This document shows positions 8,844-44,606 of a stretch of 64,000 nt of DNA, one piece after another. Origin of the DNA: a virus (Duplodnaviria > Heunggongvirae > Uroviricota > Caudoviricetes); IMG/VR virus record IMGVR_UViG_3300034061_003277, positions 479-64,478 of that record, one strand, 5' to 3'. Under the pieces are notes generated by a model. The model did no database searches, was not told where the DNA came from, and was given only the letters and a program-made list of their open reading frames with translations. The number at the start of each line of letters is the position of its first letter. Within the stretch, counting starts at the first letter, position 1. The position numbers were made by a program, and so were the translations under genes.

Positions 8844-8890
8844 GTTTGGCTTTTAGATTTTTATATATTATCTTTATAGTATAAATTAAA
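8844..8890 (+). promoter_or_regulatory. class-I (host sigma-A-like) promoter: TTTG-N20-TAtcTTTa
   Basis: 'gTTTGgcttttagatttttatatatTAtcTTTatagtataa'; 44-nt identical copy at 16708. Confidence 0.6.
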
Positions 8891-8905
8891 ATTTAAATAA
8901 AGGTT

Positions 8906-9229
8906 ATGAATAAATCAATTACTCTTGAAAACAACCACGAGTTGCAATTAGTACCAGATACATGGGACAAAACAATTACTGTGTATTTATTTGATACAAT
9001 TAATGACACTCGAGTAACATTAACTACTTTTGAAGGTGGTAAATGGAGTTCTATATCTCAATCACATATTGACAAATTCTTTGAATTAGTTAAATCTCAT
9101 CCTAAAATTAGAGTCGCTTTAAAGAAAATATTTGGTGAATTAAGAGAAGAAGGTACACCTGATTTTGTTACTTCAATGAAGTGTTTGCGTCGTAGGATTA
9201 ATATTCAAATTAAAAAAATTCTTAAATAA
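8906..9229 (+). CDS. hypothetical protein (class-I promoter-driven)
   Basis: 107-aa ORF directly after a class-I promoter. Confidence 0.5.
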   Translation: MNKSITLENNHELQLVPDTWDKTITVYLFDTINDTRVTLTTFEGGKWSSISQSHIDKFFELVKSHPKIRVALKKIFGELREEGTPDFVTSMKCLRRRINIQIKKILK

Positions 9230-9237
9230 TAAAAACT

Positions 9238-9513
9238 ATGAGAGATATTACTGTTGATGTAGATATAGACTTAGATGATGTCTATGAAGCAATGCATGAC
9301 CGAGACATAGAACAAATGATTATGTGGTTAGATGATGATGGTTATTTAGATAAATTTAAATCACAATCTGTTGTTTTAGGATTTGATGGACATAAATTAT
9401 CTAGATTAGAAGAAGAATTTGTTATTAAATTGATCAAATTAGCTCCTAAATTCCATTCTATAAGTAATGAAGAGTTAGAATTAATTGAGAATATCTGTAA
9501 AAAATATTGTTAA
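9238..9513 (+). CDS. hypothetical acidic protein
   Basis: 91-aa ORF. Confidence 0.45.
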   Translation: MRDITVDVDIDLDDVYEAMHDRDIEQMIMWLDDDGYLDKFKSQSVVLGFDGHKLSRLEEEFVIKLIKLAPKFHSISNEELELIENICKKYC

Positions 9514-9707
9514 TGAATTTAAGTGAAGTTAAAGTATATCCTAGAGTCTACAATATTATTGAAACAGTAGACTCTAGGTTTGCGACTGGGGGTGAAATCA
9601 AAGTATGTCATGTCAATGATGATTCACTGTTAGTAGCTATAGGATCAGGCTTAGCATTTCCAATAAGTAAAAAAGAAGCAGAACAAATAAAAGTCCAACC
9701 AAGATGA
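9507..9707 (+). CDS. hypothetical protein
   Basis: 66-aa ORF. Confidence 0.4.
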   Translation: MLMNLSEVKVYPRVYNIIETVDSRFATGGEIKVCHVNDDSLLVAIGSGLAFPISKKEAEQIKVQPR

Positions 9708-10039
9708 AAAAGTTATTTTTAATGTTACCACTTGTAGGATTAATGGCGTGTGAAGGATCAACTCCACAACCAATAATTATTCCTCATGTTGACACTATTA
9801 TAGTGAAACCAGACCCAATTATACCAACAGATACTACTAAGGCATGGCCTATTAAAGTTGTAACTGTAGAAAGAAATGTGGATAAAAGTATTAATATGAA
9901 GTGGGAAGTAGTAACTGAGAACGGAGTTATGTATTATACTAATCATAAACCACAAATTGGCGATATTGCTTTTTGTCTTGGAATGGATGAAGAGATTGTT
10001 GATTGTGAATGTAATAAACTAAAAACAAATAAACCATGA
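9704..10039 (+). CDS. lipoprotein
   Basis: Signal peptide plus lipobox MKKLFLMLPLVGLMAC. Confidence 0.55.
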   Translation: MKKLFLMLPLVGLMACEGSTPQPIIIPHVDTIIVKPDPIIPTDTTKAWPIKVVTVERNVDKSINMKWEVVTENGVMYYTNHKPQIGDIAFCLGMDEEIVDCECNKLKTNKP

Positions 10040-10422
10040 AAAAAATATTAGTTACACTACTAATATGTGTATGCTCACTAATAGCATTCTCACAACCTGT
10101 ATTTGCCAAATCAAACACAGTAGCAATCGGAATTAAAAACACAGTAGGAACATTTGACTGGGATGCACCTCAGGTCACAAGCGATATTCTAGTTAAAATA
10201 GATGCTGCTGAAATTAATGTTCATTCTAAAGTACACCAACAGTATCATCTCTACTTAGATGTAAATGAATTAAATGATGATGATACAGCATGTTGGATGG
10301 CATATGATAAAGATGGGGAGCGATGTAGGGTTTATCTACTTAGGAACGATGTTGGTGATTCATTTTTAATGATAGAATATAATGATATATCTTGGATTTA
10401 TAATTTAATAATGGTAAAATAA
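10036..10422 (+). CDS. secreted protein
   Basis: Signal peptide ...SLIAFSQPVFA (Bacteroidetes-type SQ cleavage context). Confidence 0.5.
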   Translation: MKKILVTLLICVCSLIAFSQPVFAKSNTVAIGIKNTVGTFDWDAPQVTSDILVKIDAAEINVHSKVHQQYHLYLDVNELNDDDTACWMAYDKDGERCRVYLLRNDVGDSFLMIEYNDISWIYNLIMVK

Positions 10423-10670
10423 TGGCAGAATTTAGTAAACAATGGGTCGAAATGAATGACTCGGAAATGGGATGGGATTTTGATATTGATCAAATAGTAT
10501 CCGAATTACCCACTAATCATATGATTCCTTACATTTGTGAAGGATTTGGATTCATTGCGATTGGAAAAAATGAACAGGATCAAATCTTCTTAGCTATGCC
10601 TACAGGTAACTTTAGTGAAGAAGGATCTGAAGTAGATTGGAAACCAATAGAGGAGGTGATCAATGGATAA
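10422..10670 (+). CDS. hypothetical protein
   Basis: 82-aa ORF. Confidence 0.4.
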   Translation: MAEFSKQWVEMNDSEMGWDFDIDQIVSELPTNHMIPYICEGFGFIAIGKNEQDQIFLAMPTGNFSEEGSEVDWKPIEEVING

Positions 10671-10905
10671 AATGATGTCACTGTATGAATACTTAGGTAA
10701 AGCAGCAGGTGGGCACTTAGGTAAGGAAGTATATATTCGTGCCCTACAAGATGGTGTTAGATGGGAGAAGAAAAAAGTATCTAACCCTAAATACACAGGT
10801 GATGTAATGACATATCCTGAGTCGTTTTTAAAAGAGTATTTTAATCCATCAATTAAATCTTCTCCTCTTTCTTCTATAGAGGATGAAAGTGACACTCCTT
10901 TTTAA
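10663..10905 (+). CDS. hypothetical protein
   Basis: 80-aa ORF. Confidence 0.4.
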   Translation: MDKMMSLYEYLGKAAGGHLGKEVYIRALQDGVRWEKKKVSNPKYTGDVMTYPESFLKEYFNPSIKSSPLSSIEDESDTPF

Positions 10906-10936
10906 TATTTATTAGTAACACTTTATTACTAAAAAT

Positions 10937-11761
10937 ATGTTACTAAAAAACGGATCAAAAGGAGAAGAAGTTAAACAACTTCAAGCAAAATTAGGATTAA
11001 ACGCAGACGGTAATTTTGGTCCTATGACTGAAACTAAAGTCAAAGAATGGCAAGCAGCAAATGGATTAGCAGCTGACGGTATTGTAGGAGACGGTACATG
11101 GGGTAAAATGTTTGGAGCAGCAGCTCCAACCCCTGTTGCAACTGTAGCTATCCCGCCAAGTTCATTCAAACTAGATGCTTTAAAGGGACATATCCCTGAT
11201 GCTGTAATAGCCCAAATCCCAGATACAGCAGCTAAATTCAACATTACAAATCCATTACGTCTAGCTCATTTCTTAGCACAATGTGGACATGAATCAGGTG
11301 GATTCAAATTCATTAATGAGAATTTAAACTACTCAGCTGATGGTTTAAAGAAGATATTCGGAAAATACTTCCCAGGCGATCTAGCTGCTTCATATGCTCG
11401 CAACCCAGAAAAAATTGCTTCTCGTGTTTATGGAGCAAGAATGGGTAATGGAGATGAATCAACAGGTGAAGGATATAAATATCGTGGACGTGGTTATATC
11501 CAATTAACTGGTAAATCTAACTACACCAATTTTGCTAAATTTATAGGAGAAGATACAGTCGCCAACCCCGATCTAGTAGCAACCAAATACCCATTAGCAT
11601 CAGCAGCATTTTTCTTCGATTCAAATAAATTATGGTCAATATGTGATAAAGGAGCTGATGAAGCAACTGTCACAGCAGTCACTAAACGAGTAAACGGTGG
11701 TACAATTGGTTTACCTGATCGTATTAAGCATTTTAACGAGTACTATAACTTATTGAAATGA
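10937..11761 (+). CDS. endolysin: peptidoglycan-binding domain + GH19/lysozyme-like catalytic domain
   Basis: Two PG_binding_1-like repeats (LQAKLGLNADGNFGPMTETKVKEWQ; LAADGIVGDGTWGKM); GH19-type motif LAHFLAQCGHESGGF. Confidence 0.8.
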   Translation: MLLKNGSKGEEVKQLQAKLGLNADGNFGPMTETKVKEWQAANGLAADGIVGDGTWGKMFGAAAPTPVATVAIPPSSFKLDALKGHIPDAVIAQIPDTAAKFNITNPLRLAHFLAQCGHESGGFKFINENLNYSADGLKKIFGKYFPGDLAASYARNPEKIASRVYGARMGNGDESTGEGYKYRGRGYIQLTGKSNYTNFAKFIGEDTVANPDLVATKYPLASAAFFFDSNKLWSICDKGADEATVTAVTKRVNGGTIGLPDRIKHFNEYYNLLK

Positions 11762-12576
11762 TGGCTGAGGAGAAAAAATACAGAAATACATTAACTTCCC
11801 GATTAGTATACCTAAACCCAGATTTTACTCCTGAGGACTCAAGTAGTTTAGAATTAATACCTGTTAATAAAGATGGAGATGGAACTGTTGAGGTATCATT
11901 AACCGCCGCTAGTGGGAGTGCAGTAATAGACTCATCTGAGAATATATTATCACAAGATTTTAGAATTGGTGAGAATGGAATAATTGAAATTTCTTTTAAA
12001 CAAGGTTGGATTACAGATACTTTTAGAAAATTTATAAATAAATATAAAGGTTCTAGATGGCAAGTGCAATTTAAAGTTATAATTAATCTTAATAGTGGAA
12101 ATTTTCCTAAAAATACTTATAAAGATATAATATACTTTAATTTTATTGATATAGAATTAGGTTCTTTTGAACAATCAAATGAAGCAAATAATATTAGAAT
12201 CTTAACTGAATCAGAAATAAGTAAGGATATACTTCAAATAAAATCAAATTTTAAAACTGTAGAGGAGGATTATATTTTAGCTAAAAAGCAATACGAAGCC
12301 CAGTTAAAATCTAATGTTGATCTAGAAATTGATACAGTCAATCCCTACGAACCAAGGTCATTTAAAACTGTTATCACTCGTTTATTAGAATTTCAAGAAG
12401 GCACTATCAATCCATCTTTAGACTATACTAAGGTTGCAGGGTTGGATAGTGAGTATAAAAAACTAGAAGTCATAAATAAGCTAATTACCAACTTAACGAG
12501 AATGTATCCGTCTATCACTATTAAGGATGGTGAAGGCATCCCATACAACGGCAAAGAAGTGCAATTAGAAAAATAA
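11758..12576 (+). CDS. hypothetical protein
   Basis: 272-aa ORF coupled to the endolysin stop. Confidence 0.5.
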   Translation: MMAEEKKYRNTLTSRLVYLNPDFTPEDSSSLELIPVNKDGDGTVEVSLTAASGSAVIDSSENILSQDFRIGENGIIEISFKQGWITDTFRKFINKYKGSRWQVQFKVIINLNSGNFPKNTYKDIIYFNFIDIELGSFEQSNEANNIRILTESEISKDILQIKSNFKTVEEDYILAKKQYEAQLKSNVDLEIDTVNPYEPRSFKTVITRLLEFQEGTINPSLDYTKVAGLDSEYKKLEVINKLITNLTRMYPSITIKDGEGIPYNGKEVQLEK

Positions 12577-12593
12577 ACAATAGAAATACTAAC

Positions 12594-13673
12594 ATGGGTT
12601 ATTTAAAAAACATAGTCACTTATTTCTACAAAATATTATTCAGCTCAGAGATAAATGAAGCTGATAAATTTATTGATAAAGCTGCCATCATCTCTATAAC
12701 TGATGAGCGTGGTAAGATAATCTATGTTAATGATAAGTTTGAGAAGGTTTCTGGGTGGACATTAGATGAGGTTAGAGGTAAAGATCATTCTATAGTCAAT
12801 TCCGGGACGCAACCAGATGGCTATTGGGGTAAGATGTATGAGACTGTGTTGAAGGGTGAAGTGTGGAATGATATTGTATGTAATGTAACTAAAGAGGGTA
12901 AACATTATTGGGTAGACACTTATATTAGAGCCCGTTTTAATAAATGTGGAAAACTAAAAGGATTCTCATCTATTAGACAGGACGTCACTGCGCTTATGGA
13001 GCAGTCTGTTGAGTTAAATAGAAAGAATACATATCTAGAACACGCTGCTAAAATTCTTAGGCACGACATGCACTCAGGTATAAACACTTACATACCAAGA
13101 GGTATTAGTTCATTAGAAAGAAGACTCAAACCAGAAGATATTCAAAAGTTAAAAATAGAAGCTCCTCTTAAGATGATTAAAGAGGGGCTAACTCATGCTC
13201 AAAAAGTTTATAAAGGTGTTTATGAGTTTACCAATTTGGTTAAAAAAGATGTTGTGTTAGATAAAGAGTTATATGATTTAAAACAAATATTAAACTCATA
13301 TCTAGCATCAACTTCATATAAAAGTCAAGTAATAATCAAAGATTTATCTACTGTAGAAGTCAATGAAGCATTATTTTGTACAGCTGTAGATAACCTAATT
13401 CGCAATGGGTTAAAATACAACGACTCAGATACTAAAATAGTAACTATATTTATGGAGGATGATTCTACTCTTGCTATTCAAGATAATGGTAGAGGAATAA
13501 CTCAAGAAGATTTTAATTATTTATCTAGACCTTACACTCGTAAAGAAGGACAAAAAGAAGCAGGTACTGGTTTAGGTTTAAATATATGTGTTGCAATTTT
13601 AAAAGAGCATGGTTTTGATATTACATGTGAAAAAAATGAGGTTGGAACCAAAATGAAAATTAAAATAAAATGA
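12594..13673 (+). CDS. cytoplasmic sensor histidine kinase (PAS + HisKA_3-like H-box + HATPase_c)
   Basis: PAS-like N-terminus (ITDERGKIIYVNDKFEKVSGWTLDEVRGKDHSIV...HYWVDTYI); H-box-like LRHDMHSG; ATPase boxes NGLKYNDSD, DNGRGI, GTGLGLNIC. Confidence 0.7.
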   Translation: MGYLKNIVTYFYKILFSSEINEADKFIDKAAIISITDERGKIIYVNDKFEKVSGWTLDEVRGKDHSIVNSGTQPDGYWGKMYETVLKGEVWNDIVCNVTKEGKHYWVDTYIRARFNKCGKLKGFSSIRQDVTALMEQSVELNRKNTYLEHAAKILRHDMHSGINTYIPRGISSLERRLKPEDIQKLKIEAPLKMIKEGLTHAQKVYKGVYEFTNLVKKDVVLDKELYDLKQILNSYLASTSYKSQVIIKDLSTVEVNEALFCTAVDNLIRNGLKYNDSDTKIVTIFMEDDSTLAIQDNGRGITQEDFNYLSRPYTRKEGQKEAGTGLGLNICVAILKEHGFDITCEKNEVGTKMKIKIK

Positions 13674-14302
13674 GAACACTATTACTATTAAGTTTCTTAT
13701 TAATATCATCACTAGGATTTAGCCAAACTAAATACCCTATCCAAACTATATTCAGAGGTGACTCAGTTGTTATTCTAACTATTAAACAATCTTTTGGTAT
13801 TAATAAAGCAATTGAAACCCAAAAAAGAATTATCCGAGACCAGAATAAAAAAATACTCGCTCTAAATAAAACAATTGATAGTTTAAATAGGATAAATAAT
13901 AGAGTTAATACTGTTATTGATAGTATACAATATATTGCAGACACAACATATAAGTGGGCTGACGAATTTAATATGGTTATCAGAGAACGAGCTATAGGTC
14001 CATGTTTACTTTATACCATACCTCCTTATAACAGTGTATTCTTTTTAGATTTAAGTCGTTATAGAATGTATAGTACAGAATACGGTGAAAAAATTGAATT
14101 AGAATTAATGTCAGATAAACAATATGCCGAGTTTAAAAGACTACAAGATTTATATTTTGATAGATACTACCCTACTTTAGATTATTATAAAGAGATTGGG
14201 TTTAAAGATTTTAATACTGAGATTGAATTATACGAGAAGGCAATTTGGAAGACTAAAAATATAATGAAGTTAATGATAAAACAAGAAGAAAAGAAAAAAT
14301 GA
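13670..14302 (+). CDS. secreted protein encoded between the two kinases
   Basis: Signal peptide MRTLLLLSFLLISSLGFSQ; start overlaps kinase stop. Confidence 0.5.
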   Translation: MRTLLLLSFLLISSLGFSQTKYPIQTIFRGDSVVILTIKQSFGINKAIETQKRIIRDQNKKILALNKTIDSLNRINNRVNTVIDSIQYIADTTYKWADEFNMVIRERAIGPCLLYTIPPYNSVFFLDLSRYRMYSTEYGEKIELELMSDKQYAEFKRLQDLYFDRYYPTLDYYKEIGFKDFNTEIELYEKAIWKTKNIMKLMIKQEEKKK

Positions 14303-15606
14303 AAAAAATAATATCATTACTTATAGTCTTACTTGTATCTATAAATTTATACTCCCAAGAGATAAATTATAAAGACACTCTAGTAGATAACATAGAAACA
14401 ACTTGGATTGATAGCGATACAGCGACATTGGCCGCTATGGGTATTCAAGAAATTGTTACTACTTGGATTGAACCAGAACCAGAGCCAGAACCTGAACCTG
14501 TTGACATGACACAGTTATCAGAAACTGATTTAGTCAACATTGCTCAGGATGTACAATTCCTATCAGAATTGCCTAAGTCATATACTGATTTACCTAAAGA
14601 GGATTTAAAGAATGTTTTAGTTCAAATTGATAATAAACTTAATAAATTAACGGCTGAGCGAGATTCATTATTAGCACAAGCAACTAGAAATGATGAATTA
14701 ATTAAATCAAAAGAAAATACAATTAACGCCTTAGGAAAAGAAAAGAACATCATTGGTTTAACTTTAGAAACTGGTGATTTAATAGTTGAGAAAACAGATT
14801 TAGAAAAGCAAAGAGAAACATTAAAAAAATATCTCTATTGGGCTGTTGGTATAGTAATATTATTTAGTTTAATACTTGCTGTTGTATTACAAAGAAAGAA
14901 AATACAAGTACAGGACGTAGAAATTGAAGAACAACTTAATGACATATCTAAAAAGAATAGTTACTTAGAACACGCTGCGAGAATTATCCGCCACGACATG
15001 CACTCAGGTATAAACACATACATGCCTAGAGGTATTAGTTCACTTGAAAAACGATTAACACCTGAAGACATTCAAAAGTTAAAAATAGAAGGTGCTTTAA
15101 AAATGGTTAAAGAAGGTTTAAACCATACACAGCGAGTATATAAAAGTGTTTATGAATTTACTAACTTAGTGAAATCAGATGTTGTATTGAATAAAACCAA
15201 AGTTAATCTAAAAGATTTGCTTCAAAACTACATTACCCCAAACTCATATAGCTCACAGGTTGAAATTAGTGACTTAGAAGAATTAGAAGTAAATGAAATT
15301 TTATTTTGCAATGCAGTTGAAAATTTAATTAAAAATGGATTATCATATAATGATAGCCAAGAAAAGAAAGTCAAAATATATATTGACAACGACAGTTTAG
15401 TAATCGAAGATAATGGTCGAGGATTTACACAAAAACAATTTGATAAACATTTAACAAAATACTCAAAGAAAACAAATGTTACAGGTGATGAAAATGGACT
15501 CGGTTTGAATATATGCGTTGCTATATTAGAGGAGCATGGTTTTAAATTAAGTTGTGAAGGAAACAATGTAGGAACTAAAATGAAAATTAAAATTAAAAAT
15601 GACTGA
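14299..15606 (+). CDS. membrane-anchored sensor histidine kinase (paralog of 12594-13673 core)
   Basis: Signal peptide, TTWIDSD/TTWIEPE repeat, EPEPEPEPEP linker, coiled coil, TM (WAVGIVILFSLILAVVL). Kinase core ~85% nt-identical over H-box (ttagaacacgctgc...cacgacatgcactcaggtataaaca); DNGRGF, GLGLNICVAILEEHGF. Confidence 0.7.
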   Translation: MKKIISLLIVLLVSINLYSQEINYKDTLVDNIETTWIDSDTATLAAMGIQEIVTTWIEPEPEPEPEPVDMTQLSETDLVNIAQDVQFLSELPKSYTDLPKEDLKNVLVQIDNKLNKLTAERDSLLAQATRNDELIKSKENTINALGKEKNIIGLTLETGDLIVEKTDLEKQRETLKKYLYWAVGIVILFSLILAVVLQRKKIQVQDVEIEEQLNDISKKNSYLEHAARIIRHDMHSGINTYMPRGISSLEKRLTPEDIQKLKIEGALKMVKEGLNHTQRVYKSVYEFTNLVKSDVVLNKTKVNLKDLLQNYITPNSYSSQVEISDLEELEVNEILFCNAVENLIKNGLSYNDSQEKKVKIYIDNDSLVIEDNGRGFTQKQFDKHLTKYSKKTNVTGDENGLGLNICVAILEEHGFKLSCEGNNVGTKMKIKIKND

Positions 15607-16051
15607 CTTGAACATGATTGAATCTATTTTATTAGTAGATGATGAGGATTTATTCCACTTAGTATTTGAAGATGCTTGTAGCCTATTAGACATAACTTTG
15701 TCTTTGGAAGCTATAAACAGTGCTGATGAAGCCGAAAAACGATTTAAAAAATGGTTTGATACCGGTGATATATCTGATAAACCAAAATGTGTATTTGTTG
15801 ATTTAAATATCATAGGATCATCGTTTGATGGTATTGAATTAATTCGACGAATTAACTTTATGTATGGTAACCATGTAGTAGTTGGAATTATATCATCAAG
15901 TAATGAAGCAGAAGAACAAGCCAAAGCACTTCAAGCCGGGGCCCAATTTTGGATCATTAAATCAGATGATATTGAACCACGATTGGAAGAATTTAGAAAA
16001 GACTACCAGGCGTATGAAGCTAGAACAGCCCCATTTAAAATATATAGATAA
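15599..16051 (+). CDS. stand-alone response-regulator receiver (REC, CheY-like)
   Basis: LLVDDED acidic pocket, phospho-acceptor Asp in VFVDLNI, conserved S/T (ISSS) and Lys (WIIKS); no output domain. Confidence 0.75.
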   Translation: MTDLNMIESILLVDDEDLFHLVFEDACSLLDITLSLEAINSADEAEKRFKKWFDTGDISDKPKCVFVDLNIIGSSFDGIELIRRINFMYGNHVVVGIISSSNEAEEQAKALQAGAQFWIIKSDDIEPRLEEFRKDYQAYEARTAPFKIYR

Positions 16052-16701
16052 TGATAGTAGGAAAGGTTACAAAAGAGCAGTTATTAAATGTATACAAGAC
16101 AAAGAACATATGTCTTGAGGGTAACATTCTGAAATTAATTGACCCTGAGGATGACACTGAATTCACAGAGTATTTGAAGATATGTGCTGATAGAGATAAA
16201 GATAGTAGACGTAAGCGTTTGGAAATAACTAAACGTATCCAAACTCAGAACAATGAACTTACTGAAGCCCAACAACAAAATGAAAAATTGATGTTGGAGC
16301 TACAGTCTTCTTTAGAAGAAATGGAAACTTCTAAAGCACAGATCGAATGCCAAAATAAAGAATTGCTACAGTGGAAAGAGGAGAATGAAAAAATGGATGA
16401 AGATCTACGTGAAGCATTAAGAATTGCTGAGAATGCTAAATTAGCAGCTGAGGGTGATTTAGATCTAATGCAGAAAAAAACTCAATTTGAATTAATAAAT
16501 AGCATTGTAAAAGTAGCATTATATATTATTTTAGGTGTAGGTATTGTAACCACAGGGATGTTTGTATTTGCAATGGTAATGGGCTACGACACAACAATTC
16601 TTAGTTCAGCATGGTCTAATATGTTTGGTATATTATTAACTAACTCATTCAGCATAGTAGGTACTATAATGGGAGTTAAATATGCTTCTGAAAAAAAGTA
16701 A
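16051..16701 (+). CDS. coiled-coil protein with C-terminal transmembrane helices
   Basis: Long Q/E/K-rich coiled coil then two hydrophobic helices; start overlaps REC stop. Confidence 0.5.
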   Translation: MIVGKVTKEQLLNVYKTKNICLEGNILKLIDPEDDTEFTEYLKICADRDKDSRRKRLEITKRIQTQNNELTEAQQQNEKLMLELQSSLEEMETSKAQIECQNKELLQWKEENEKMDEDLREALRIAENAKLAAEGDLDLMQKKTQFELINSIVKVALYIILGVGIVTTGMFVFAMVMGYDTTILSSAWSNMFGILLTNSFSIVGTIMGVKYASEKK

Positions 16702-16707: not shown

Positions 16708-16749
16708 GTTTGGCTTTTAGATTTTTATATATTATCTTTATAGTATAAG
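16708..16749 (+). promoter_or_regulatory. class-I promoter (exact repeat of 8844-8885)
   Basis: gtttggcttttagatttttatatattatctttatagtataa. Confidence 0.6.
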
Positions 16750-16763
16750 AAAATTTAAAGGTT

Positions 16764-17598: not shown

Positions 17599-17640
17599 GT
17601 TTGGCTTTTCAAAAAAATTATATTATCTTTATAGTGTAAA
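17599..17640 (+). promoter_or_regulatory. class-I promoter variant
   Basis: aGTTTGGCttttcaaaaaaattatatTAtcTTTatagtgtaaa, same TTTG-N20-TA spacing. Confidence 0.55.
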
Positions 17641-17668
17641 TTAAAAACAAATAAATAAATAAAAAGTT

Positions 17669-17926
17669 ATGAACAAAATGTCTACGACACAAACAACTCG
17701 CCAGTATCGCCAGTTGAACAAAACAGCTAAACAAGCATTCTTTACAGCACGTCGCCGCAACGGAGATGTAACTAAAGTTGCTAAGATGAGTAATCAATCT
17801 ATTAGTCACGTGTCTAATATTATGTCAGGTCGTCGCAGTGTTAATCAAGAAGTTGCAAATGCAATGTATATGGTTTCACGTCGTCGCCTAAAAAACACTG
17901 AGAGACAACTCAGTAAAGTTGCCTAA
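17669..17926 (+). CDS. small basic HTH DNA-binding protein (candidate early regulator)
   Basis: HTH-like VAKMSNQSISHVSNIMSGRRSV; R/K-rich; class-I promoter upstream and strong terminator downstream. Confidence 0.5.
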   Translation: MNKMSTTQTTRQYRQLNKTAKQAFFTARRRNGDVTKVAKMSNQSISHVSNIMSGRRSVNQEVANAMYMVSRRRLKNTERQLSKVA

Positions 17927-17952: not shown

Positions 17953-17978
17953 TAGGGGGCTTTGCCCCCTAATTTTTA
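17953..17978 (+). terminator. rho-independent terminator
   Basis: tagggggc-ttt-gccccct followed by aattttt. Confidence 0.7.
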
Positions 17979-18029
17979 ATCCTAGATTCTTAAATAAATT
18001 TTATTATCTTTATAGTATAAATAAAAATT

Positions 18030-19431: not shown

Positions 19432-19488
19432 CTTTTTATCCTAGGCTTTTAAATTAAATTTATTATCTTTATAGTATAAGAAAAAATT

Positions 19489-32395: not shown

Positions 32396-32422
32396 GAATT
32401 AGTTTCTTATAATGTTATACTT

Positions 32423-32963: not shown

Positions 32964-33020
32964 TTTCATCCTAGATTTTCAAGCAAACTGTATTATCTTT
33001 ATAGTATAAATTAAAAACAT

Positions 33021-33995: not shown

Positions 33996-34070
33996 GTACA
34001 CTCAAACTTTTTATCCTAGACTTTTAAATAAGATGTATTATCTTTATAGTATAAATTAAAAACATATAAT

Positions 34071-35398: not shown

Positions 35399-35884
35399 AT
35401 GAACGTAGCAGAAATCAAACACAAAGTAGCAGAGCTAATACTCGAATCAAAGACAAAATGGGAAAAAACATTTAATGGTATTGAACCACCCACACAAGCA
35501 GAACGAGACGAATATGAACAACATCATAAACTCACTAACAGCAAAATCAAACAAATCGTTCCACGAGAACTACAACTGAGCATAGGTTTAACTGGGTGTG
35601 CTAAGACAGTGTGGAATGGTGATGTTGATAGAGAGATTGAAGCAGAGTTTGGTAAAGGTAATGGTGTGTATTGTGATAGTGAGTCAGGTATGTTTTATGC
35701 TAAAGCATCACCTAAAATGGTTCATAAATTGATTCGATTCATTGATTATAAGTTTCCAAACGAACTTGAACTAAGTATATCACCAACAGGTGATTGGGAT
35801 GATAATGGTAACCCATGGTTTTACAATTGGAATAGTATGGAACGTTATTTTAAGGAGTTAGAACAAGATGCCGAAAACTCTTAA
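35399..35884 (+). CDS. hypothetical protein (ATG 35399; track ORF 35264 overlaps previous gene)
   Basis: MNVAEIKHKVAELILESKTKWEK... Confidence 0.45.
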   Translation: MNVAEIKHKVAELILESKTKWEKTFNGIEPPTQAERDEYEQHHKLTNSKIKQIVPRELQLSIGLTGCAKTVWNGDVDREIEAEFGKGNGVYCDSESGMFYAKASPKMVHKLIRFIDYKFPNELELSISPTGDWDDNGNPWFYNWNSMERYFKELEQDAENS

Positions 35885-35935
35885 CCTAGACTTTTAAGTG
35901 AATTGTATTATCTTTATAGTATAAATTAAAAACAT
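35885..35935 (+). promoter_or_regulatory. class-II phage promoter (archetype)
   Basis: CCTAGActtttaagtgaattgtatTAtcTTTatagtataaattaaaaacatATG. Confidence 0.65.
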
Positions 35936-36124
35936 ATGACAACAAAAGAACTAACACAACAGACAAGACTGTTAATGGTGAAACACCCCGAACTGAAAGA
36001 AACATTTATGAGCCTACACGAACTAGCTATAACTGAAATACAAGATGGTGGTAACGAGTCAGTAGAATGTGAACGAGCATTAGAAGACATGAATGAAGAG
36101 ATTAAAGAGTACCTTAACTCTTAA
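35936..36124 (+). CDS. hypothetical protein
   Basis: 62 aa. Confidence 0.45.
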   Translation: MTTKELTQQTRLLMVKHPELKETFMSLHELAITEIQDGGNESVECERALEDMNEEIKEYLNS

Positions 36125-36181
36125 TCCTAGATCCTCAAGTATATTATATTATCTTTATAGTATAAATTAAAAACATATAAT

Positions 36182-36953: not shown

Positions 36954-36977
36954 GTGGGGGTTAACACCCCCACTTTT
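36954..36977 (+). terminator. rho-independent terminator
   Basis: gtggggg-ttaaca-cccccac then TTTT. Confidence 0.7.
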
Positions 36978-37031
36978 AATCCTAGACTCCCAAGTAAACG
37001 ATATTATCTTTATAGTATAAATTAAAAACAT

Positions 37032-37508
37032 ATGATTAAATTTATCGAAACAGATTCAGGACGTATCAGCAGTGGATACACTCATGAACACAACGACTGC
37101 ACAGTGCGAGCATTAGCAGAAGTAACTGGTGCAAGTTATGCCCAAGCACATTCATTTTGGACAAAGTTAGGTCGCACACCACGTCATGGTTCATATATGA
37201 GTTGGTTAGATGATTATTTAATTAAGAATAATAATGAATTGTTTGGTTGGAAAGTGGTTAGACATAGAATACCATATCATGATCACGAACGTGAACGTGA
37301 TCCAATTACACGCAAACCAACAGTAAAACGCCTTAATGTTAAAACATTTATACAACAAAACCCAAAAGGTCGATTCATGACAATTAATCGTAGCCATGCT
37401 AAAGCAATTGTTAATGGTGAGATACGAGATTTAGATCAGGGAATATATAGTGAGTTAATGTTGGTATATGAATTTAAAGACTCTAGATTTTCAACCCTAG
37501 ACTTTTAA
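37032..37508 (+). CDS. hypothetical protein
   Basis: 158 aa. Confidence 0.45.
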   Translation: MIKFIETDSGRISSGYTHEHNDCTVRALAEVTGASYAQAHSFWTKLGRTPRHGSYMSWLDDYLIKNNNELFGWKVVRHRIPYHDHERERDPITRKPTVKRLNVKTFIQQNPKGRFMTINRSHAKAIVNGEIRDLDQGIYSELMLVYEFKDSRFSTLDF

Positions 37509-37551
37509 GTGAGTTACATTATCTTTATAGTATAAATTAAAAACATATAAT

Positions 37552-37813: not shown

Positions 37814-38098
37814 ATGAAAAGAACATTTTTTAACCCTAAAAAGATAAACTGGGCAAGAATTGCCCAAGCAGAATGGAGTAATATAAAAGACGATATTAGA
37901 GAGATGTATGGGGATAAGGCTATACGTACAACATATAATGACCAACGTGTATATGGTCGTCGTATTAAGTTTAGAACCCATCCAGATGTAAGTAGAGATG
38001 AAGTGATCGGATTTATTAAGGGTAAAGGATACATGGCAGAACGACATCCACAAGGATATGTCCTGGCATATTTTGGATCACCTGAAAGCTGGCTCTAA
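37814..38098 (+). CDS. hypothetical basic protein
   Basis: 94 aa. Confidence 0.45.
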   Translation: MKRTFFNPKKINWARIAQAEWSNIKDDIREMYGDKAIRTTYNDQRVYGRRIKFRTHPDVSRDEVIGFIKGKGYMAERHPQGYVLAYFGSPESWL

Positions 38099-38164
38099 AC
38101 TCTTAACCCTAGACTCTTAAATATAATACATTATCTTTATAGTATAAATTAAAAACATAAAACA

Positions 38165-38542
38165 ATGACAATTTCACTAACCCCATCAGAATCAGAAGAG
38201 TATTTTTACAACGCATTATGTAACGGCTTACATGAATTAGCAGGTAACGGTGTTGAACTTGATTTTGACAAAGATGATTTTGATTCATCACGAGCAACAT
38301 TAGGACCAAACGCACCATGTTTTGAAGACATATTGATGCAAATGTTACGTGATGGTTATAGATTAGATTTTATTGATGAGGAAGCAGAAGACACTGTATC
38401 AATCACAATGAATGATGTTCATGCAAAAGTACAAACAACAATACCACGCCATTTACTTGATATGATAAATGAACAAGACGATGCTGTAACAGCAGATGTT
38501 ATATTACAAACAGTTATATATGGTGAGGTTGTCTATGGATAA
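38165..38542 (+). CDS. hypothetical acidic protein
   Basis: 125 aa. Confidence 0.45.
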   Translation: MTISLTPSESEEYFYNALCNGLHELAGNGVELDFDKDDFDSSRATLGPNAPCFEDILMQMLRDGYRLDFIDEEAEDTVSITMNDVHAKVQTTIPRHLLDMINEQDDAVTADVILQTVIYGEVVYG

Positions 38543-38616
38543 CCTTAATCTTCTATCCTAGATTATTAGGTGTATTGTATTATCTTTATAGTATAAATTA
38601 AAAACATATAACATTT

Positions 38617-39318: not shown

Positions 39319-39515
39319 ACGCAGATATTCACTTCACAGACGACCAAGGTAATGAATTTTATGTTGGGATAAGAAATGGCGAGTTAAGTCAAGTTTGGAA
39401 AAACAAAATGGACATAAGAGATTTTAGAGTTTATGTTGAAGAATTATATGACATAGAACCCAAACCTGGAATGTATATAGATGGTGATGAATGGGAACGT
39501 GAAATGGGTAGATAA
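39315..39515 (+). CDS. hypothetical protein
   Basis: 66 aa. Confidence 0.4.
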   Translation: MNADIHFTDDQGNEFYVGIRNGELSQVWKNKMDIRDFRVYVEELYDIEPKPGMYIDGDEWEREMGR

Positions 39516-39587
39516 TACCCATATTTTTATACCTAGACTTCTATATAAATTGTATTATCTTTATAGTATAAATTAAAAACATATAAT

Positions 39588-39812: not shown

Positions 39813-39817
39813 ATGTT

Positions 39818-39848
39818 TAGGGCGCTAACATAGCGCCCTAACTTTTAT
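39818..39848 (+). terminator. rho-independent terminator
   Basis: ttagggcgct-aacat-agcgccctaa then cTTTTaT. Confidence 0.7.
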
Positions 39849-39900
39849 ACCTAGACTTTTAAGTATTATATATTATCTTTATAGTATAAATTAAAAACAT

Positions 39901-40167
39901 ATGAGTAAAAAAATCAAAATCGAACCACACCAAACAAGACGCATCACAGAACACAAAATGGCCTACGACTTAGGCTCACTAATCGGTACAGTGCAAGCAG
40001 TATTACAATACGACGCTGTTGATGAAACAGCGAAGCGTTCATTATTGAGAGTGTTACGTGAAATAGAAGATGGTGTGAGTGAGTATAGTAAGTCCCGTAT
40101 TGCTAAGTTAGAACAGTTAGCGGCTGAGAAAGGATTTGAATATTATATCCAAGACTCTCAATCCTAG
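39901..40167 (+). CDS. hypothetical protein
   Basis: 88 aa. Confidence 0.4.
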   Translation: MSKKIKIEPHQTRRITEHKMAYDLGSLIGTVQAVLQYDAVDETAKRSLLRVLREIEDGVSEYSKSRIAKLEQLAAEKGFEYYIQDSQS

Positions 40168-40237
40168 ATAAATAGGAGGATTATTATATCTTTATAGTAT
40201 AAATTAAAATAATAAAACACATAAAAAACAACACAAC

Positions 40238-40830: not shown

Positions 40831-40903
40831 ACACTTTAATCTTTATACCTAGATTAAGGAGCAAACTATATTATCTTTATAGTATAATTAAAAAATAATA
40901 ATA

Positions 40904-41242
40904 ATGAAAGTTTATTCACCACAACCGAACAATGAATTGTTCAAAGTAACTAACTTAAAAGCGTTTACAACAAAACGTTTAACTAAATCACACCCGATGT
41001 GGGATGTATTAGACAAAATCGCAACACACTTAAAAATAAATGATGAACCATTAACAAAAATATATGGTCACATATACTTTAATGAGAGTGGAGGTAGTTT
41101 TGATGAACAAGACCAAACATTGTATGTGTATGTAGCAGGTGATAGTGAAGTGAGTATTACTAAATCATTAACAACATTTAGTAGAGGATATCAGAGTAAA
41201 AGTGGATGGGGTATTAAGAAATGGAATGAAATAAAACCATAA
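40904..41242 (+). CDS. hypothetical protein
   Basis: 112 aa. Confidence 0.45.
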   Translation: MKVYSPQPNNELFKVTNLKAFTTKRLTKSHPMWDVLDKIATHLKINDEPLTKIYGHIYFNESGGSFDEQDQTLYVYVAGDSEVSITKSLTTFSRGYQSKSGWGIKKWNEIKP

Positions 41243-41309
41243 CTTTTATACCTAGATTAAAGAATATATTGTATTATCTTTATAGTATAAATTAAAAACA
41301 TATAATAAT

Positions 41310-41504: not shown

Positions 41505-41747
41505 TACCAGAATAAAACATGTATAGTTTAGATTGTAGTTATTATACAAAGTCATTTACAACATTGAATGAGTTAATAAATGATATAGCAATGTCCGGTA
41601 TGGACCCGAACTATGAAGTAACATTTAATGGTGAGGGAATAGGGGAAAAAGCAATTGATTTCCTAAACTTTTAATCCTAGATTCTCAAGTGTTATATATT
41701 ATCTTTATAATATAAGAAAAAATAATAAATAATTAAATAACAGTAAC

Positions 41748-42401: not shown

Positions 42402-42846
42402 TAAAATGTTGAACCATTTTTAATATAAATAATACAAATGTGACAAACATATGTGAGTGTGTTATAGGGAGACTATGTGGTGTGGTGGGTATGTGATGAA
42501 CGGGTGATGAATGGGTGGTATGGAGTGGTGCGGTAGTGACTTGACATCGCCTGTTCAGAACAGATCTTAACCATAACAAAAAATATATACAAAAATAAAA
42601 AACCAAAACAAAAAAATAAAAATAAAAGAAAATTAAAAAACAAAAGAAAAAAAAACCAAAAATTTTTAACCTAGATAAAGGGGTGAGTTAATATATCTTT
42701 ATAGTATAAATTTAATAAATAATAATATGAAAAAAGTATTGACCTGGGCTGAATTAGAAAGAATAGAGGAGTTTTACCAAGACTTTCAGCCCTAGATAAA
42801 TAGGGAAATAGTATTATCTTTATAGTAATAAATTAAATTAACACAC

Positions 42847-43053
42847 ATGATTAAAATTAGTGATTTAGGACCCGGATACAGTATATTCGGAAACAAAGGA
42901 AATGTATGGAGCAACACAGCACACGCCTACAAAAGCGGAGTAGGTAATGTATGCGGCACACCAGCACTATCGAATAACTGGGCTAGGATAGAAGGGCTAA
43001 CGCATGTAGGGTGCCCGGAGTGTATAGAGAAATTAAAAGAAAATAACCATTAA
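42847..43053 (+). CDS. hypothetical Cys-containing small protein
   Basis: 68 aa; CGT...CPEC. Confidence 0.4.
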   Translation: MIKISDLGPGYSIFGNKGNVWSNTAHAYKSGVGNVCGTPALSNNWARIEGLTHVGCPECIEKLKENNH

Positions 43054-43215
43054 TTTCATACCTAGGTAAATAGGGAGATTAATATATCTTTATAGTATAA
43101 GAAAAAAAAATAAAGTGTATAGGTAATCATGTTACGTGAGCATGAAACAGGATTACAGTGAAGTAATAAGTTGAAATACGCCTATACACTTTATACCATA
43201 ATAAAATAAATTATA

Positions 43216-43389
43216 TGAAAGACAACACAGACATCAAGATTTTAGTTATGTGCGTAGCAGCATTTGTGATATCAACATTAGGGATAGTAGTATCGCCTAC
43301 AATAATGTCACAAATATTTTTCGCCGTTATTGATTTATTCATTGCTATTTTGATTATGTTTTTATTAGGTGAGATTAGAAAACCATAAC
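43216..43389 (+). CDS. 57-aa membrane protein (not in track; preferred over minus ORF 43211-43396)
   Basis: MKDNTDIKILVMCVAAFVISTLGIVVSPTIMSQIFFAVIDLFIAILIMFLLGEIRKP. Confidence 0.35.
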
Positions 43390-43458
43390 TATCCATCTTA
43401 GACTTTTGAGTAAATTATTATATCTTTATATTAATAAAATAAATTAATAATTAAAGTT

Positions 43459-43716
43459 ATGGCCAACAAAAAAGGTAGTTATGAATTAGTAGAAAGTGTA
43501 ATGGTAGATTGTTATGGTGGTGGTTTAGGTGAGTATAATGAGAAGGTGATGAATGATTTTTATAGTAGTTTTGAGAAGGGTGTTGATGTGAGTAAAAATA
43601 AGTTTTTTGAGTTTTGTAATAAGTATATAGATGATGTAAGTGAGAGATATTATATTAGATTAAATTGGGAGTTTATTATTAGTGGTGGTGATGAGAGTGT
43701 TTATGAGGAATGTTAA
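43459..43716 (+). CDS. hypothetical protein
   Basis: 85 aa. Confidence 0.4.
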   Translation: MANKKGSYELVESVMVDCYGGGLGEYNEKVMNDFYSSFEKGVDVSKNKFFEFCNKYIDDVSERYYIRLNWEFIISGGDESVYEEC

Positions 43717-43721
43717 ATTAA

Positions 43722-43745
43722 GGGGGCAAATGCCCCCACTTTTTA
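43722..43745 (+). terminator. rho-independent terminator
   Basis: gggggc-aaat-gccccc then acTTTTTaT. Confidence 0.7.
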
Positions 43746-43806
43746 TCCTAGACTAGAAAATGAGTTATTATATCTTTATAGTATAAATTAAAATAATATA
43801 AATAGT

Positions 43807-43995
43807 ATGTACCAAGAACTAAACACCTTTATTATCTTTCCAGAATCAAATAACATTTTTAATTATGTTACGTTTAAATGTCTCCCCGACGAATTAAATA
43901 ATATGTTAATTAAGGAGGAAATGATTGGTCCGGAATATCATTATTCCGAGTTCAGTTGGGTTATTTTTAAGGACGGAGAAATGATTCAGGGTTAA
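43807..43995 (+). CDS. hypothetical protein
   Basis: 62 aa. Confidence 0.4.
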   Translation: MYQELNTFIIFPESNNIFNYVTFKCLPDELNNMLIKEEMIGPEYHYSEFSWVIFKDGEMIQG

Positions 43996-44083
43996 CACCT
44001 GAATTATTCGTCCTAGATAATTAAGCGATATATAATATCTTTATATTAATAAAATAAATTAATAACTAAATAATTAGCACACC

Positions 44084-44260
44084 ATGCAAAGCGAACTACA
44101 AAAACTTATTAGCAGTTTAATTCAAAACGGTATCAACCAAGATCAAATTGATGCGTTCACAGCATTATATAACGAAGCAGTAAAGTTAAAGTTTGAAGTG
44201 GACGACATTGACCAGTACGAACAAGACGGACCATTATATGTTACATTAAAAATAAAATAA
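44084..44260 (+). CDS. 58-aa ORF (not in track)
   Basis: MQSELQKLISSLIQNGINQDQIDAFTALYNEAVKL...; class-II promoter upstream. Confidence 0.3.
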   Translation: MQSELQKLISSLIQNGINQDQIDAFTALYNEAVKLKFEVDDIDQYEQDGPLYVTLKIK

Positions 44261-44333
44261 TAACCATAACTTTCACACCTAGGTTATTAAGTAGTATATA
44301 ATATCTTTATAGTATAAATTAAAATAATAAAAA

Positions 44334-44510
44334 ATGTACAATCCAAAATCAACTAATCCGTTTAAAGCATTTGCCGTGTTCGTAGCTATCATAACCACAC
44401 TATTTCTAGTTGGGTGTAGCACACCACAACACGGTTACAATTATAAGTCGCATTCAAAACACCGTAACACTGGACCAAGTAAGTGTTATAAGCAACATAA
44501 TAAGTGGTAA
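44334..44510 (+). CDS. 58-aa lipoprotein-like ORF (not in track)
   Basis: MYNPKSTNPFKAFAVFVAIITTLFLVGCSTPQHG... (lipobox LVGC). Confidence 0.3.
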   Translation: MYNPKSTNPFKAFAVFVAIITTLFLVGCSTPQHGYNYKSHSKHRNTGPSKCYKQHNKW

Positions 44511-44606
44511 GGAAATAATAACCATATATTTCACACCTAGAAAATTAAGTTTTATATTATATCTTTATATTAATAAATTAAAATAATAAATAAATAATTA
44601 AAAATT

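Follow-up and report, generated by a model that had tools for sequence, protein, structure and literature searches.

The window analyzed here, a 64-kb stretch of a phage genome of ~165 kb, carries ~35 near-identical promoter cassettes, all with a host-style -7 element. As the first-pass annotation had proposed, they resemble promoters of the Bacteroidota -33/-7 type, with the consensus spacing, and form two classes differing only at -33: 29 copies have a CCTAG-type box (class II) and 6 have a host-type TTG (class I). The cassettes would belong to a Flavobacteriia myophage related to Flavobacterium phage immuto. Our best reading, held with somewhat less than even confidence, is that host RNA polymerase (RNAP) with σA reads the -7 element while a phage factor reads the box, by analogy with MotA/AsiA of phage T4.

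The repetition of the motif before genes was real. The 18-mer TATCTTTATAGTATAAAT, with up to 3 mismatches, had 32 matches in the window, against 1.08 ± 1.11 in shuffled sequences (maximum 4). Except for a single minus-strand match (16033-16050, 3 mismatches) without cassette context, all of them (31/32) were on the plus strand just 5' of ORFs; the copies are oriented and gene-proximal. A 13-mer scan with flanks gave 34 cassette copies in the window. Many genes are preceded by a cassette, but the wording "before almost every gene" was overstated: between 17.95 and 44.7 kb, 25 of the 64 called plus-strand genes are directly preceded, reaching 16 of 24 between 35.9 and 44.7 kb, and the remaining plus-strand genes lie in short operons. 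Coordinates are given in Table 1, where T0 is the T of TATC, from which box positions are counted.

Table 1. Promoter cassettes and a candidate regulator in the window, all on the plus strand. Class II rows are from the 13-mer scan with flanks.
Feature	Coordinates	T0	Remarks
Class I-like promoter	5320-5349	5342	TTGG-N19-TATATTTA; upstream of ORF 5359; regex scan
Class I cassette	8844-8891	8869	GTTTGGC at -25 to -19; gene 8906
Class I cassette	16708-16755	16733	Gene 16764 (178 aa), then tRNA-Leu, tRNA-Met
Class I cassette	17599-17646	17624	Predicted to drive HTH gene 17669
85-aa HTH protein	17669-17926		LacI/PurR-headpiece or XRE-like; candidate regulator
Class II cassette	17967-18027	18005	GC hairpin (GGGGGCTTTGCCCCC) and T-run upstream
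Class II cassette	19426-19486	19464	CCTAGG
Class II cassette	22034-22094	22072	Gene 22084, ATG at T0+12; mRNA would be leaderless
Class II cassette	25923-25983	25961	DNA ligase 25973, ATG at T0+12; mRNA would be leaderless
Hybrid, effectively class I cassette	27445-27492	27470	CTTGG at -24 to -20; gene 27501
Class II cassette	27764-27824	27802	
Class II cassette	30506-30566	30544	Gene 30580, DUF932
Class II cassette	32455-32515	32493	Terminator hairpin 32422-32448 just upstream
Class II cassette	32956-33016	32994	
Class II cassette	34001-34061	34039	
Class II cassette	35871-35931	35909	One-sided homology with relative
Class II cassette	36112-36172	36150	
Class II cassette	36954-37027	37005	With terminator hairpin 36954-36973
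Class II cassette	37482-37542	37520	
Class II cassette	38094-38154	38132	
Class II cassette	38524-38603	38581	With hairpin 38524-38547
Class II cassette	39504-39578	39556	With hairpin 39504-39522
Class II cassette	39817-39896	39874	With terminator hairpin 39817-39841
Class II cassette	40149-40209	40187	
Class II cassette	40834-40894	40872	
Class II cassette	41237-41297	41275	
Class II cassette	41662-41722	41700	TATCTTTATAATA
Class II cassette	42656-42716	42694	Then only very short ORF
Class II cassette	42777-42837	42815	
Class II cassette	43047-43107	43085	CCTAGG; then only very short ORF
Class II cassette	43383-43443	43421	Variant box CTTAG
Class II cassette	43722-43793	43771	With terminator hairpin 43722-43737
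Class II cassette	43998-44058	44036	
Class II cassette	44264-44324	44302	CCTAGG
Class II cassette	44522-44582	44560	Gene 44607
Degenerate class I-like promoter	45927-45974	45952	TTTG-N20-TATCTTTACAATA; gene 45976

In class II, CCTAG occupies positions -24 to -20 from T0, with C-24, T-22, A-21, and G-20 invariant (29/29) and C-23 kept in 28 of the 29 copies. The spacer between the box and the -7 element is constant in length in all 29 copies and across lineages, and variable in sequence. None of the 29 contains TTG. The previously described replacement of TTTG by CTAG holds in that CCTAG and TTTGG coincide over five positions, with a one-base offset between CTAG and TTTG themselves. The proposed ~45-nt consensus is present but too short, as the motif also takes in CC at -38/-37, A-33, cTTTt at -32 to -28, and AAGT at -13 to -10. 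The start context AAAGTTATG was found in a minority of copies only, most class II cassettes having ACATA(TAAT)ATG. Class II genes include small ORFs, DNA and RNA ligase genes, and a denV-like gene, and the region is syntenic with the TTG-type cassettes of immuto; from gene content and this synteny, they look "early" rather than "middle".

The -7 element TATCTTTA, common to both classes, fits that of Bacteroidota, and the class I spacing, TTTG-N20-TAnnTTTA, equals the published -33/-7 consensus. The consensus of Bacteroidota σA is reportedly TTTG/TAnnTTTG (Bayley 2000, Chen 2007, Baez 2019). The phage elements differ from it in that every one has A at -5 in place of the G that is almost invariant in the host consensus, in conservation running ~15 nt past the -7 element with an A-rich leader, and in the absence of TTG from class II. 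Because transcription in F. johnsoniae starts 4-5 nt past the -7 element (PMC6847099), +1 is predicted at T0+12. At this position stands the A of the earliest possible start codon (ATG) of genes 22084 and 25973, whose proteins have homologues aligning from residues 1-6, and both leaders appear to be of zero length. Over the cassettes, the ATG lies 12-51 nt from T0; the median of 32 nt puts it ~24 nt past the last base of TATCTTTA. The expectation of short leaders was correct, but the distance from -7 to ATG, proposed as conserved (~25 nt), is variable.

Further host-type copies came from a regex scan (TTG-N18-20-TAnnTTT[AG], at most 60 nt from a gene start). The three GTTTGGC copies at 8844, 16708, and 17599 were as previously described, with TTTG at -24 to -21, 20 nt before TATCTTTA, but the host-type copies number six in all. 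The hybrid cassette at T0 27470 is kept in the relative L036. Orthologous promoters have changed class elsewhere: that of gene 8906 is CCGAG in the CCGAG lineage (L186:1623), and that of gene 16764 is CATAGG in L183. This lability argues against a rigid temporal split. In contrast, a TTGG host-type promoter precedes the HTH gene also in the CCGAG and CATAG lineages, inside box-type arrays. No other gene has kept such a promoter in all three lineages with a box, which makes the HTH protein a candidate regulator. The immediate-early role assigned to class I genes is therefore uncertain, being consistent for the HTH gene and not for the other two.

Comparison of 28 flank-anchored orthologous cassette pairs with one ~90 % relative revealed few substitutions in the box (2/168, 1.2 %) and the -7 core (5/364, 1.4 %), and many in the spacer (55/504, 10.9 %) and the distal element (36/420, 8.6 %). 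The latter parts diverge ~8-fold faster, which points to position-specific selection and not blanket homogenisation, and the pattern indicates that the box is functional and under purifying selection. Other lineages have other boxes in the same register: two IMG/VR contigs and three ENA contigs carry CCGAG, and a 175-kb JGI contig carries CATAG/CTTAG. No box type departs from C-24, A-21, and G-20. Phage vB_FspM_immuto (NC_055915) and the metagenomic L189 lineage resemble our phage in syntenic glycosyltransferase, DUF932, small-ORF array, and baseplate regions, and in cassette design (-33, N19-20, TAnnTTTA, A-rich leader), but differ in having canonical (G)TTG(C) or TTTGGC at -33 throughout the array. 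Thus, on the simplest interpretation, the CCTAG, CCGAG, and CATAG boxes would be derived states. The box is lineage-specific, and this variation, together with the purifying selection, lends support to the earlier idea that it needs a phage-specific reader.

If the favored reading is right, the cassettes would be composite terminator-promoter units with TATCTTTA at promoter positions -12 to -5, +1 at T0+12, and the A-rich leader next. Class I, with the host TTTG/TTG at -36 to -33, would be read by unmodified host RNAP with σA. In class II, CCTAG(A/G) takes the -33 positions, behind a T-run and in many copies a terminator 3' arm; σA region 2 would keep recognizing the -7 element, and a phage-specified factor on the box would replace the -33 contact. 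The formal parallel would be the middle promoters of T4, distinguished from its early promoters by sigma appropriation, in which the MotA box stands in for -35 and AsiA remodels sigma region 4 (PMC2988021, PMC6755090). In such a case, the phage could block -33-dependent host transcription with its own pre-replicative genes staying on. Both systems have two classes with a common host sigma -10-type element, a second class with a phage box at the host -35-type site at fixed spacing, dozens of copies among the pre-replicative genes, and at least one small regulator gene under a host-type promoter. However, the host sigma here is Bacteroidota σA (-33/-7), the box has no relation in sequence to that of MotA (TGCTT) and varies between close phage lineages, and orthologous promoters can differ in class. 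Among Flavobacteriia phages, the only experimentally mapped host-RNAP promoters that we found in the literature are the middle promoters of the Cellulophaga crAss-like phage phi14:2 (10.1101/2020.03.07.982082). They too have a long motif of several conserved blocks in front of phage genes, but form a single class with a virion RNAP for early genes, and a -33-swap class is not reported.

No MotA- or AsiA-like protein was found, and no box-reading protein was identified within the window. The 178-aa product of gene 16764 has a predicted Sm/SH3-like fold rather than a MotA- or sigma-like one. The 85-aa HTH protein (HTH_3, E=0.018; homologues with PF01381) was modeled at pLDDT 74.5, with weak Foldseek matches to PurR and XRE, and belongs to a kind more often seen among repressors. 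Lineages that differ in their boxes all have the same recognition helix, S[VI]SHVSNI, and the protein also occurs in L189, where all cassette promoters are TTTGGC. These features count against the favored reading, as do the early look of the class II genes, the weak -33 conservation in F. johnsoniae, the labile class of orthologous promoters, and A instead of G at -5.

Such a protein would be the obvious candidate in a repressor-operator arrangement, which we consider rather unlikely. Class II cassettes would then be -33-independent early promoters used at once by host RNAP through the strong extended -7 element, with CCTAG as the operator for later shut-off by a phage repressor. The HTH protein is conserved, has a repressor-type fold and sequence, and has a box-less promoter of its own in all three box lineages, and its invariant helix could match the invariant C..AG of the box types. 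The early look of the class II genes and their synteny with immuto fit as well. The -33 element is weakly conserved genome-wide in F. johnsoniae (PMC6847099), so host RNAP might fire class II promoters from a strong -7 element alone. However, the loss of TTG from every class II copy is left without explanation, the presence of the HTH protein in box-less L189 is unfavorable, and the rigid spacing of box and -7 is more typical of an RNAP-coupled element. Moreover, the box is single and asymmetric, with no dyad partner or covariation found, which is unusual for a dimeric HTH protein. It is less probable still that a σA-like factor encoded outside the window, resembling the host factor in region 2 but altered in region 4, reads both CCTAG and the -7 element. 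Lineage-specific boxes are what a co-evolving region 4 would give, and ~100 kb of genome lies beyond the inspected stretch. Phage sigma factors, e.g., T4 gp55 and SPO1 gp28, usually alter the -10 element too, whereas here both classes have one and the same -7 element. In addition, no sigma or RNAP domain was detected in the 123 window ORFs or in the 10 kb upstream of the window, and neither a phage RNAP nor a sigma factor in the complete immuto annotation. The ORF proposed as a sigma factor (51962-52843) had no sigma/RNAP Pfam or PHROG match; it is homologous to immuto gp118 and lies beside baseplate genes. The near-perfect conservation of ~20 nt round the start site recalls T7-type promoters, and the conserved 18-26-mer might serve a phage single- or multi-subunit RNAP instead of host RNAP. 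This is highly improbable, given the textbook Bacteroidota -7 core, the canonical -33 and spacing of class I, the absence of RNAP genes from the window and immuto, and the occurrence of the extended -7 with a TTG -33 singly in unrelated viral contigs (L014, L035, L050).

It could also be that the box has no role in transcription and that recombination or gene conversion spreads the cassettes, lineage differences being drift fixed by conversion. We regard this as very unlikely, although at least 9 of the 28 orthologous cassettes (about one third) showed homology on one flank only, spacer sub-families such as CCTAGATAAATAGG occur among the cassettes, and the 18-mers are identical in both classes. 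The slower divergence of box and -7 core within the same cassettes speaks against it, as does the fact that, in close relatives, both classes coexist stably at orthologous sites, and the enrichment of BLAST breakpoints at cassettes was weak (16/90 vs. 11.3 ± 3.1).

Besides the promoter role favored here, the near-identical cassettes may, owing to their similarity, serve as junctions for homologous recombination by which small gene modules are shuffled. This would resemble the promoter-early stem-loop (PeSL) cassettes of T4-type phages (PMC2839356, PMC4122927). In both, a terminator hairpin and a strong early-type promoter are repeated in near-identical copies before small ORFs of a hyperplastic region, and indels or replacements between close relatives start or end in a cassette. 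The present cassettes differ in phage and host phylum, in their -33/-7 promoter grammar and two coexisting -33 classes, in the modest breakpoint enrichment, and in having a convincing hairpin in only about one third of copies. There were 25 terminator-like hairpins where 7.1 were expected, six of them on the plus strand and directly abutting class II boxes. In 19 of 29 MFE folds, the CC at -38/-37 pairs within a 3' arm, and in many copies the upstream CC…ACTTTT element makes up the 3' arm of a terminator hairpin together with its T-run.

The repeated motif from which the first-pass annotation derived two promoter classes proved to be real. The 18-mer TATCTTTATAGTATAAAT, with at most 3 mismatches, matched the window 32 times against 1.08 +/- 1.11 times in dinucleotide shuffles (maximum 4); 31 of these matches were on the + strand, and the single - strand match had no cassette context. 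A 13-mer scan with flanks gave 34 cassette copies, 32 of which have, 12-51 nt downstream, the start codon (ATG) of an ORF of 30 or more codons. In class II, 29 copies carrying the CCTAG box are packed into 26.6 kb, with spacings down to 121-450 nt in 42-44.6 kb. Counted from T0, the T of TATC in the -7 element, C-24, T-22, A-21 and G-20 are invariant in these 29 copies, and C-23 is present in 28. The three GTTTGGC copies were found exactly as annotated, with TTTG at -24..-21, 20 nt before TATCTTTA, and three more host-type (class I) copies bring these to six. The length of about 45 nt given for the motif was an underestimate, as the motif also includes CC at -38/-37, A-33, cTTTt at -32..-28 and AAGT at -13..-10. 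Likewise, the statement that it stands before almost every gene between 17.9 and 44.6 kb was too broad: a cassette directly precedes 25 of the 64 called genes of this interval, and 16 of 24 beyond 35.9 kb, while AAAGTTATG, proposed as the start context, occurs in a minority of copies. The word CCTAG was rejected as promoter-exclusive, 15 of its 43 + strand occurrences lying outside cassettes.

Locations of the promoter cassettes, their -33-site variants and other features (window coordinates unless another sequence is named; cassette positions relative to T0)
Feature	Location	Sequence	Description
Class I cassettes, GTTTGGC	8844, 16708, 17599	window	
Class I cassettes, additional	27470, 45952, 5320-5349	window	CTTGG at 27470
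Class II cassettes	T0 18005 to 44560	window	CCTAG at -24..-20
Class II copies reading TATCTTTATAGTATG	22072, 25961	window	ORFs 22084 and 25973
CCGAG(A/G) box	-24..-20	IMG/VR 3300032331_003707, 3300007734_000749; ENA contigs L186-L188	
CATAGG or CTTAG box	-24..-20	L183/L184, 174.8-kb JGI contig	
Canonical GTTGC	-33 site	immuto	
Canonical gTTTGGC	-33 site	L189/L190	
ATATTTATA sites	6907, 48391, 50228, 52850, 56380, 59055 (+)	window	possible third promoter class
ACTATAG pair	~9935-9962	L186	HTH gene promoter
Two-component-system block	11758-16701	window	PAS histidine kinase 12594, second histidine kinase 14299, receiver-only response regulator 15599
DksA/TraR-like protein	5874-6257	window	zinc finger; phrog_54, E=6e-5
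Proposed sigma factor ORF	51962-52843	window	homologous to immuto gp118
tRNA-like gene	28805-28871 (+)	window	Rfam RF00005, 43.4 bits
tRNA-like pair	2300-3000	L059 (3300032331_003707)	CCGAG lineage
Long ORF	~60.5 kb to 64000 (+)	window	continues past the window end
Sugar biosynthesis cluster	1-5314 and 10 kb upstream	window and upstream	sialic-acid type

Sigma-A of the Bacteroidota lacks region 1.1 and reads -33/-7 elements instead of -35/-10. Its consensus is TTTG/TAnnTTTG; in Flavobacterium johnsoniae, the -7 element spans -12..-5 with an almost invariant G at -5, the start site lies 4-5 nt further downstream and the -33 signal is weak (PMC6847099). In all cassette copies, the -7 element reads TATCTTTA (or TATATTTA), in which T-12, A-11 and T-8..-6 match TAnnTTTG (TAHHTTTG) and A replaces G at -5. 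The same A (T0+7; TAnnTTTA) was seen in every phage -7 element of this phage and of all related lineages, including the isolate Flavobacterium phage immuto. The -33 element, TTG-N19-20, is present in the six class I copies, whereas CCTAG takes its place in all 29 copies of class II. With T0 at -12, +1 falls at T0+12, and the box occupies -36..-32, i.e., where the -33 element would be. Two class II copies read TATCTTTATAGTATG; in both, no start codon earlier than the ATG at T0+12 is possible, and homologues of the two encoded proteins align from residues 1-6. Transcription would thus begin at or before T0+12, which fits the -7 assignment and implies two predicted leaderless mRNAs. With two genes starting at T0+12, TATAAAT (T0+13..+19) was excluded as a -10 element of the T4-late type. 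In addition, ATATTTATA, with a TAnnTTTA-type -7, may represent a third, box-less promoter class. Its total is not enriched (8 vs 8.4 expected), but its placement is striking: all six + strand occurrences lie 5-35 nt upstream of gene starts, mainly in the baseplate/structural region, and none has a -33 element or box. Similar TATATTTATA sites precede homologous genes in L183, a related metagenomic viral contig, and in immuto.

The box was compared across lineages, and in a relative with ~90 % identity (IMG/VR 3300032224 contigs), 28 orthologous cassettes were anchored through the flanking sequence. Substitutions were found at 2 of 168 positions in the box (1.2 %) and 5 of 364 in the -7 core (1.4 %), versus 55 of 504 in the spacer (10.9 %), 36 of 420 in the distal element (8.6 %) and 20 of 280 in the extended region +13..+22 (7.1 %). 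The constraint on the box equals that on the -7 core, and the spacer between them drifts in sequence, never in length. The box lies at -24..-20 in all 29 window copies and in the related lineages. The -7 element, common to both classes, and the register are shared among related phages, and the difference is confined to -24..-20. All box types share C-24, A-21 and G-20; class I has G at -21. No palindrome or dyad was supported in the box-spacer region, where neither -18 and -11 nor other symmetrically placed positions covaried.

Because the canonical -33 sequence agrees with the host consensus and is found throughout the arrays of immuto and the L189 contig, it is most simply read as ancestral, and the CCTAG, CCGAG and CATAG boxes as derived and lineage-specific, a polarity taken from these sequences rather than from a phylogeny. 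Derived, lineage-specific boxes are what would be expected if a co-evolving trans-acting reader took over the -33 contact. Class membership is labile, since the orthologue of gene 8906 is under CCGAG in L186, and that of gene 16764 is under CATAGG in L183, with a spacer that is still recognisably homologous. HTH gene 17669 is the one gene with a TTGG-type promoter within box-type arrays in all three box lineages. In its L186 promoter, two ACTATAG sequences ~20 bp apart flank a GGTTGG -33 element and may form an autoregulatory operator; the HTH promoter of the window has no equally clear counterpart.

Terminator-like hairpins were enriched in the window (25 vs 7.1 expected). Six + strand hairpins run directly into the T-run that precedes a class II box, and CC at -38/-37 is paired as the 3' arm in 19 of the 29 class II MFE folds; hairpins are convincing (z below -2) in ~9-10 of the 29 copies and weak or missing in the rest. 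The hairpins make these cassettes terminator-promoter composites similar to PeSLs, the stem-loop and promoter cassettes of T4-type phages (PMC2839356, PMC4122927). The likeness extends to the physical coupling of a strong early-type promoter to a stem-loop terminator, and to the repetition of almost identical copies beside small ORFs in a hyperplastic region. Homology was confined to one flank at no fewer than 9 of the 28 orthologous cassettes, and a global HSP-breakpoint test was weakly positive, with 16 of 90 breakpoints at cassettes vs 11.3 +/- 3.1 among loci that are non-independent. The 4.9-kb histidine-kinase block terminates exactly at the class I cassette at 16699. The CCGAG lineage (L186) shares this two-component-system block with the phage, and ~0.8 kb stands in its place in the ~90 % relative (L034/L182).

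These features may be explained by a division of labor at the promoter, a reading to which we give somewhat less than an even chance. Host RNAP-sigma-A would use the shared -7 element at all cassettes; at class I it would also use the host -33, with nothing further needed, and at class II the -33 contact would be exchanged for a phage-specified reader of the box. The upstream T-run and hairpin would terminate the preceding unit and may double as an UP-like element. T4 middle promoters follow the same logic, with a phage-specified reader in place of the host upstream contact (PMC2988021): the host sigma -10-type element is kept, and the -35-type element is replaced by a phage-specific box at fixed spacing. 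The defining proteins of the MotA/AsiA system were sought and not found here, and we do not count the arrangement as a member of that system. No sigma, RNAP or MotA/AsiA-like domains were detected in a Pfam scan of all 123 + strand window ORFs, and a MotA-like activator (double-wing DNA-binding domain) binding the box was likewise looked for and not found. The 178-aa product of gene 16764 was rejected as a MotA analogue or obligatory early activator, its L183 orthologue being under a box-type promoter. The 85-aa HTH protein shows weak PF01381 similarity and weak PurR-headpiece/XRE structural matches, and is not AsiA-like. It is a conserved candidate early regulator, but is unlikely to determine box specificity, as its recognition helix, S[VI]SHVSNI, is invariant in lineages with different boxes and its gene is also present in L189, a lineage with no box; its target could be the invariant C..AG, or it could be a repressor. 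Small ORFans are abundant in the window, and none could be assigned by sequence. The window also encodes a DksA/TraR-like zinc-finger protein (zf-dskA_traR weak in the relative L182), which could bind in the secondary channel of RNAP; immuto encodes such a protein too, so it is not confined to phages with a box.

In the main rival explanation, the class II promoters are early and -33-independent, and the box is the operator of a repressor, the HTH protein. The weak -33 signal of F. johnsoniae promoters (PMC6847099), the 'early' look of the class II genes and the repressor-type HTH fold agree with it; we consider it rather unlikely. A phage sigma encoded outside the window appears improbable. 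No sigma or RNAP domains were found in the 10 kb upstream, which hold only sugar-metabolism genes, or in the immuto annotation, and the ORF that had been suggested as a sigma factor was rejected, having no sigma-70 region 2 or region 4 matches in Pfam or PHROGs and being homologous to immuto gp118, which neighbours the baseplate genes. A purely recombinational repeat, to be judged by the one-flank homology as well as by the constrained box, seems more improbable again, and a phage-RNAP promoter, given the same domain searches, hardly credible. Returning to a phage-specified box reader, its fullest form would be a new sigma-appropriation-type system for the divergent Bacteroidota sigma-A, in which a phage factor replaces the region 4/-33 contact at ~30 pre-replicative promoters, the box evolves rapidly between sister lineages (TTTGG to CCTAG, CCGAG or CATAG) and the early HTH regulator stays on a host-type promoter; we propose this only tentatively, as a possibility that we rather doubt.

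To our knowledge, almost nothing is known about the reprogramming of host RNA polymerase by Bacteroidota phages. We found no prior description in the literature of two-class -33 promoters or of such a swap in these phages, and, among Flavobacteriia phages, we found mapped host-RNAP promoters for phi14:2 only, whose middle promoters form a single class (10.1101/2020.03.07.982082). The arrangement is a combination of known kinds, namely T4-like early/middle promoter logic and PeSL-like cassettes. It offers a natural experiment, in which sister lineages have identical -7 elements, leaders and gene order but four -33-site sequences (TTTGG, CCTAG, CCGAG and CATAG). If a phage factor reads the box, this switch would be the first of a sigma-appropriation-like kind outside the T4/Proteobacteria paradigm, and could provide orthogonal promoter/reader pairs as genetic tools in Flavobacteriia. 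Even if the box is an operator, the cassettes would be strong, compact phage promoters, two of them with predicted leaderless starts, and an example of PeSL-style modular shuffling outside T4-like phages.

Megablast showed no close phage relative in GenBank. The window is 100 % identical to the ENA metagenome contig L181 over 20 kb and is part of a 165,370-bp JGI/NCBI contig from JGI 3300059473. In IMG/VR, the exact 18-mer matched mainly an unrelated coding sequence, and a broad class I pattern hit at least 119 loci and was unspecific, only L083 and L124 being useful among the matches listed. The window encodes baseplate proteins, DNA and RNA ligases, a sugar-biosynthesis cluster, tRNAs and the two-component-system block. 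The nearest isolate is Flavobacterium phage vB_FspM_immuto (160 kb), with a baseplate wedge protein 45 % identical and syntenic gene order; thus, the host is very probably a member of the Flavobacteriia. A fourth tRNA-like gene, missed by ARAGORN, shares an ORF-poor stretch (28.7-29.65 kb) with tRNA-Val. In the CCGAG lineage, two tRNA-like sequences upstream of tRNA-Met have common acceptor/T-arm ends, GTCAGGTGGTG...GGTTCGAATCCTGTCCTGACTA, and long internal inserts; they received no ARAGORN call and may be tRNAs that contain introns or have been disrupted. The seeming lack of genes at the window end in the ORF list is accounted for by an ORF of at least 1175 codons, which matches by position gp109 of immuto, a large protein encoded downstream of the baseplate genes. 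At the other end, the large sugar cluster, syntenic with the glycosyltransferase block of immuto, includes a GFO/IDH/MocA oxidoreductase, NeuB, GNAT, several glycosyltransferases, an aminotransferase and a CMP-transferase.
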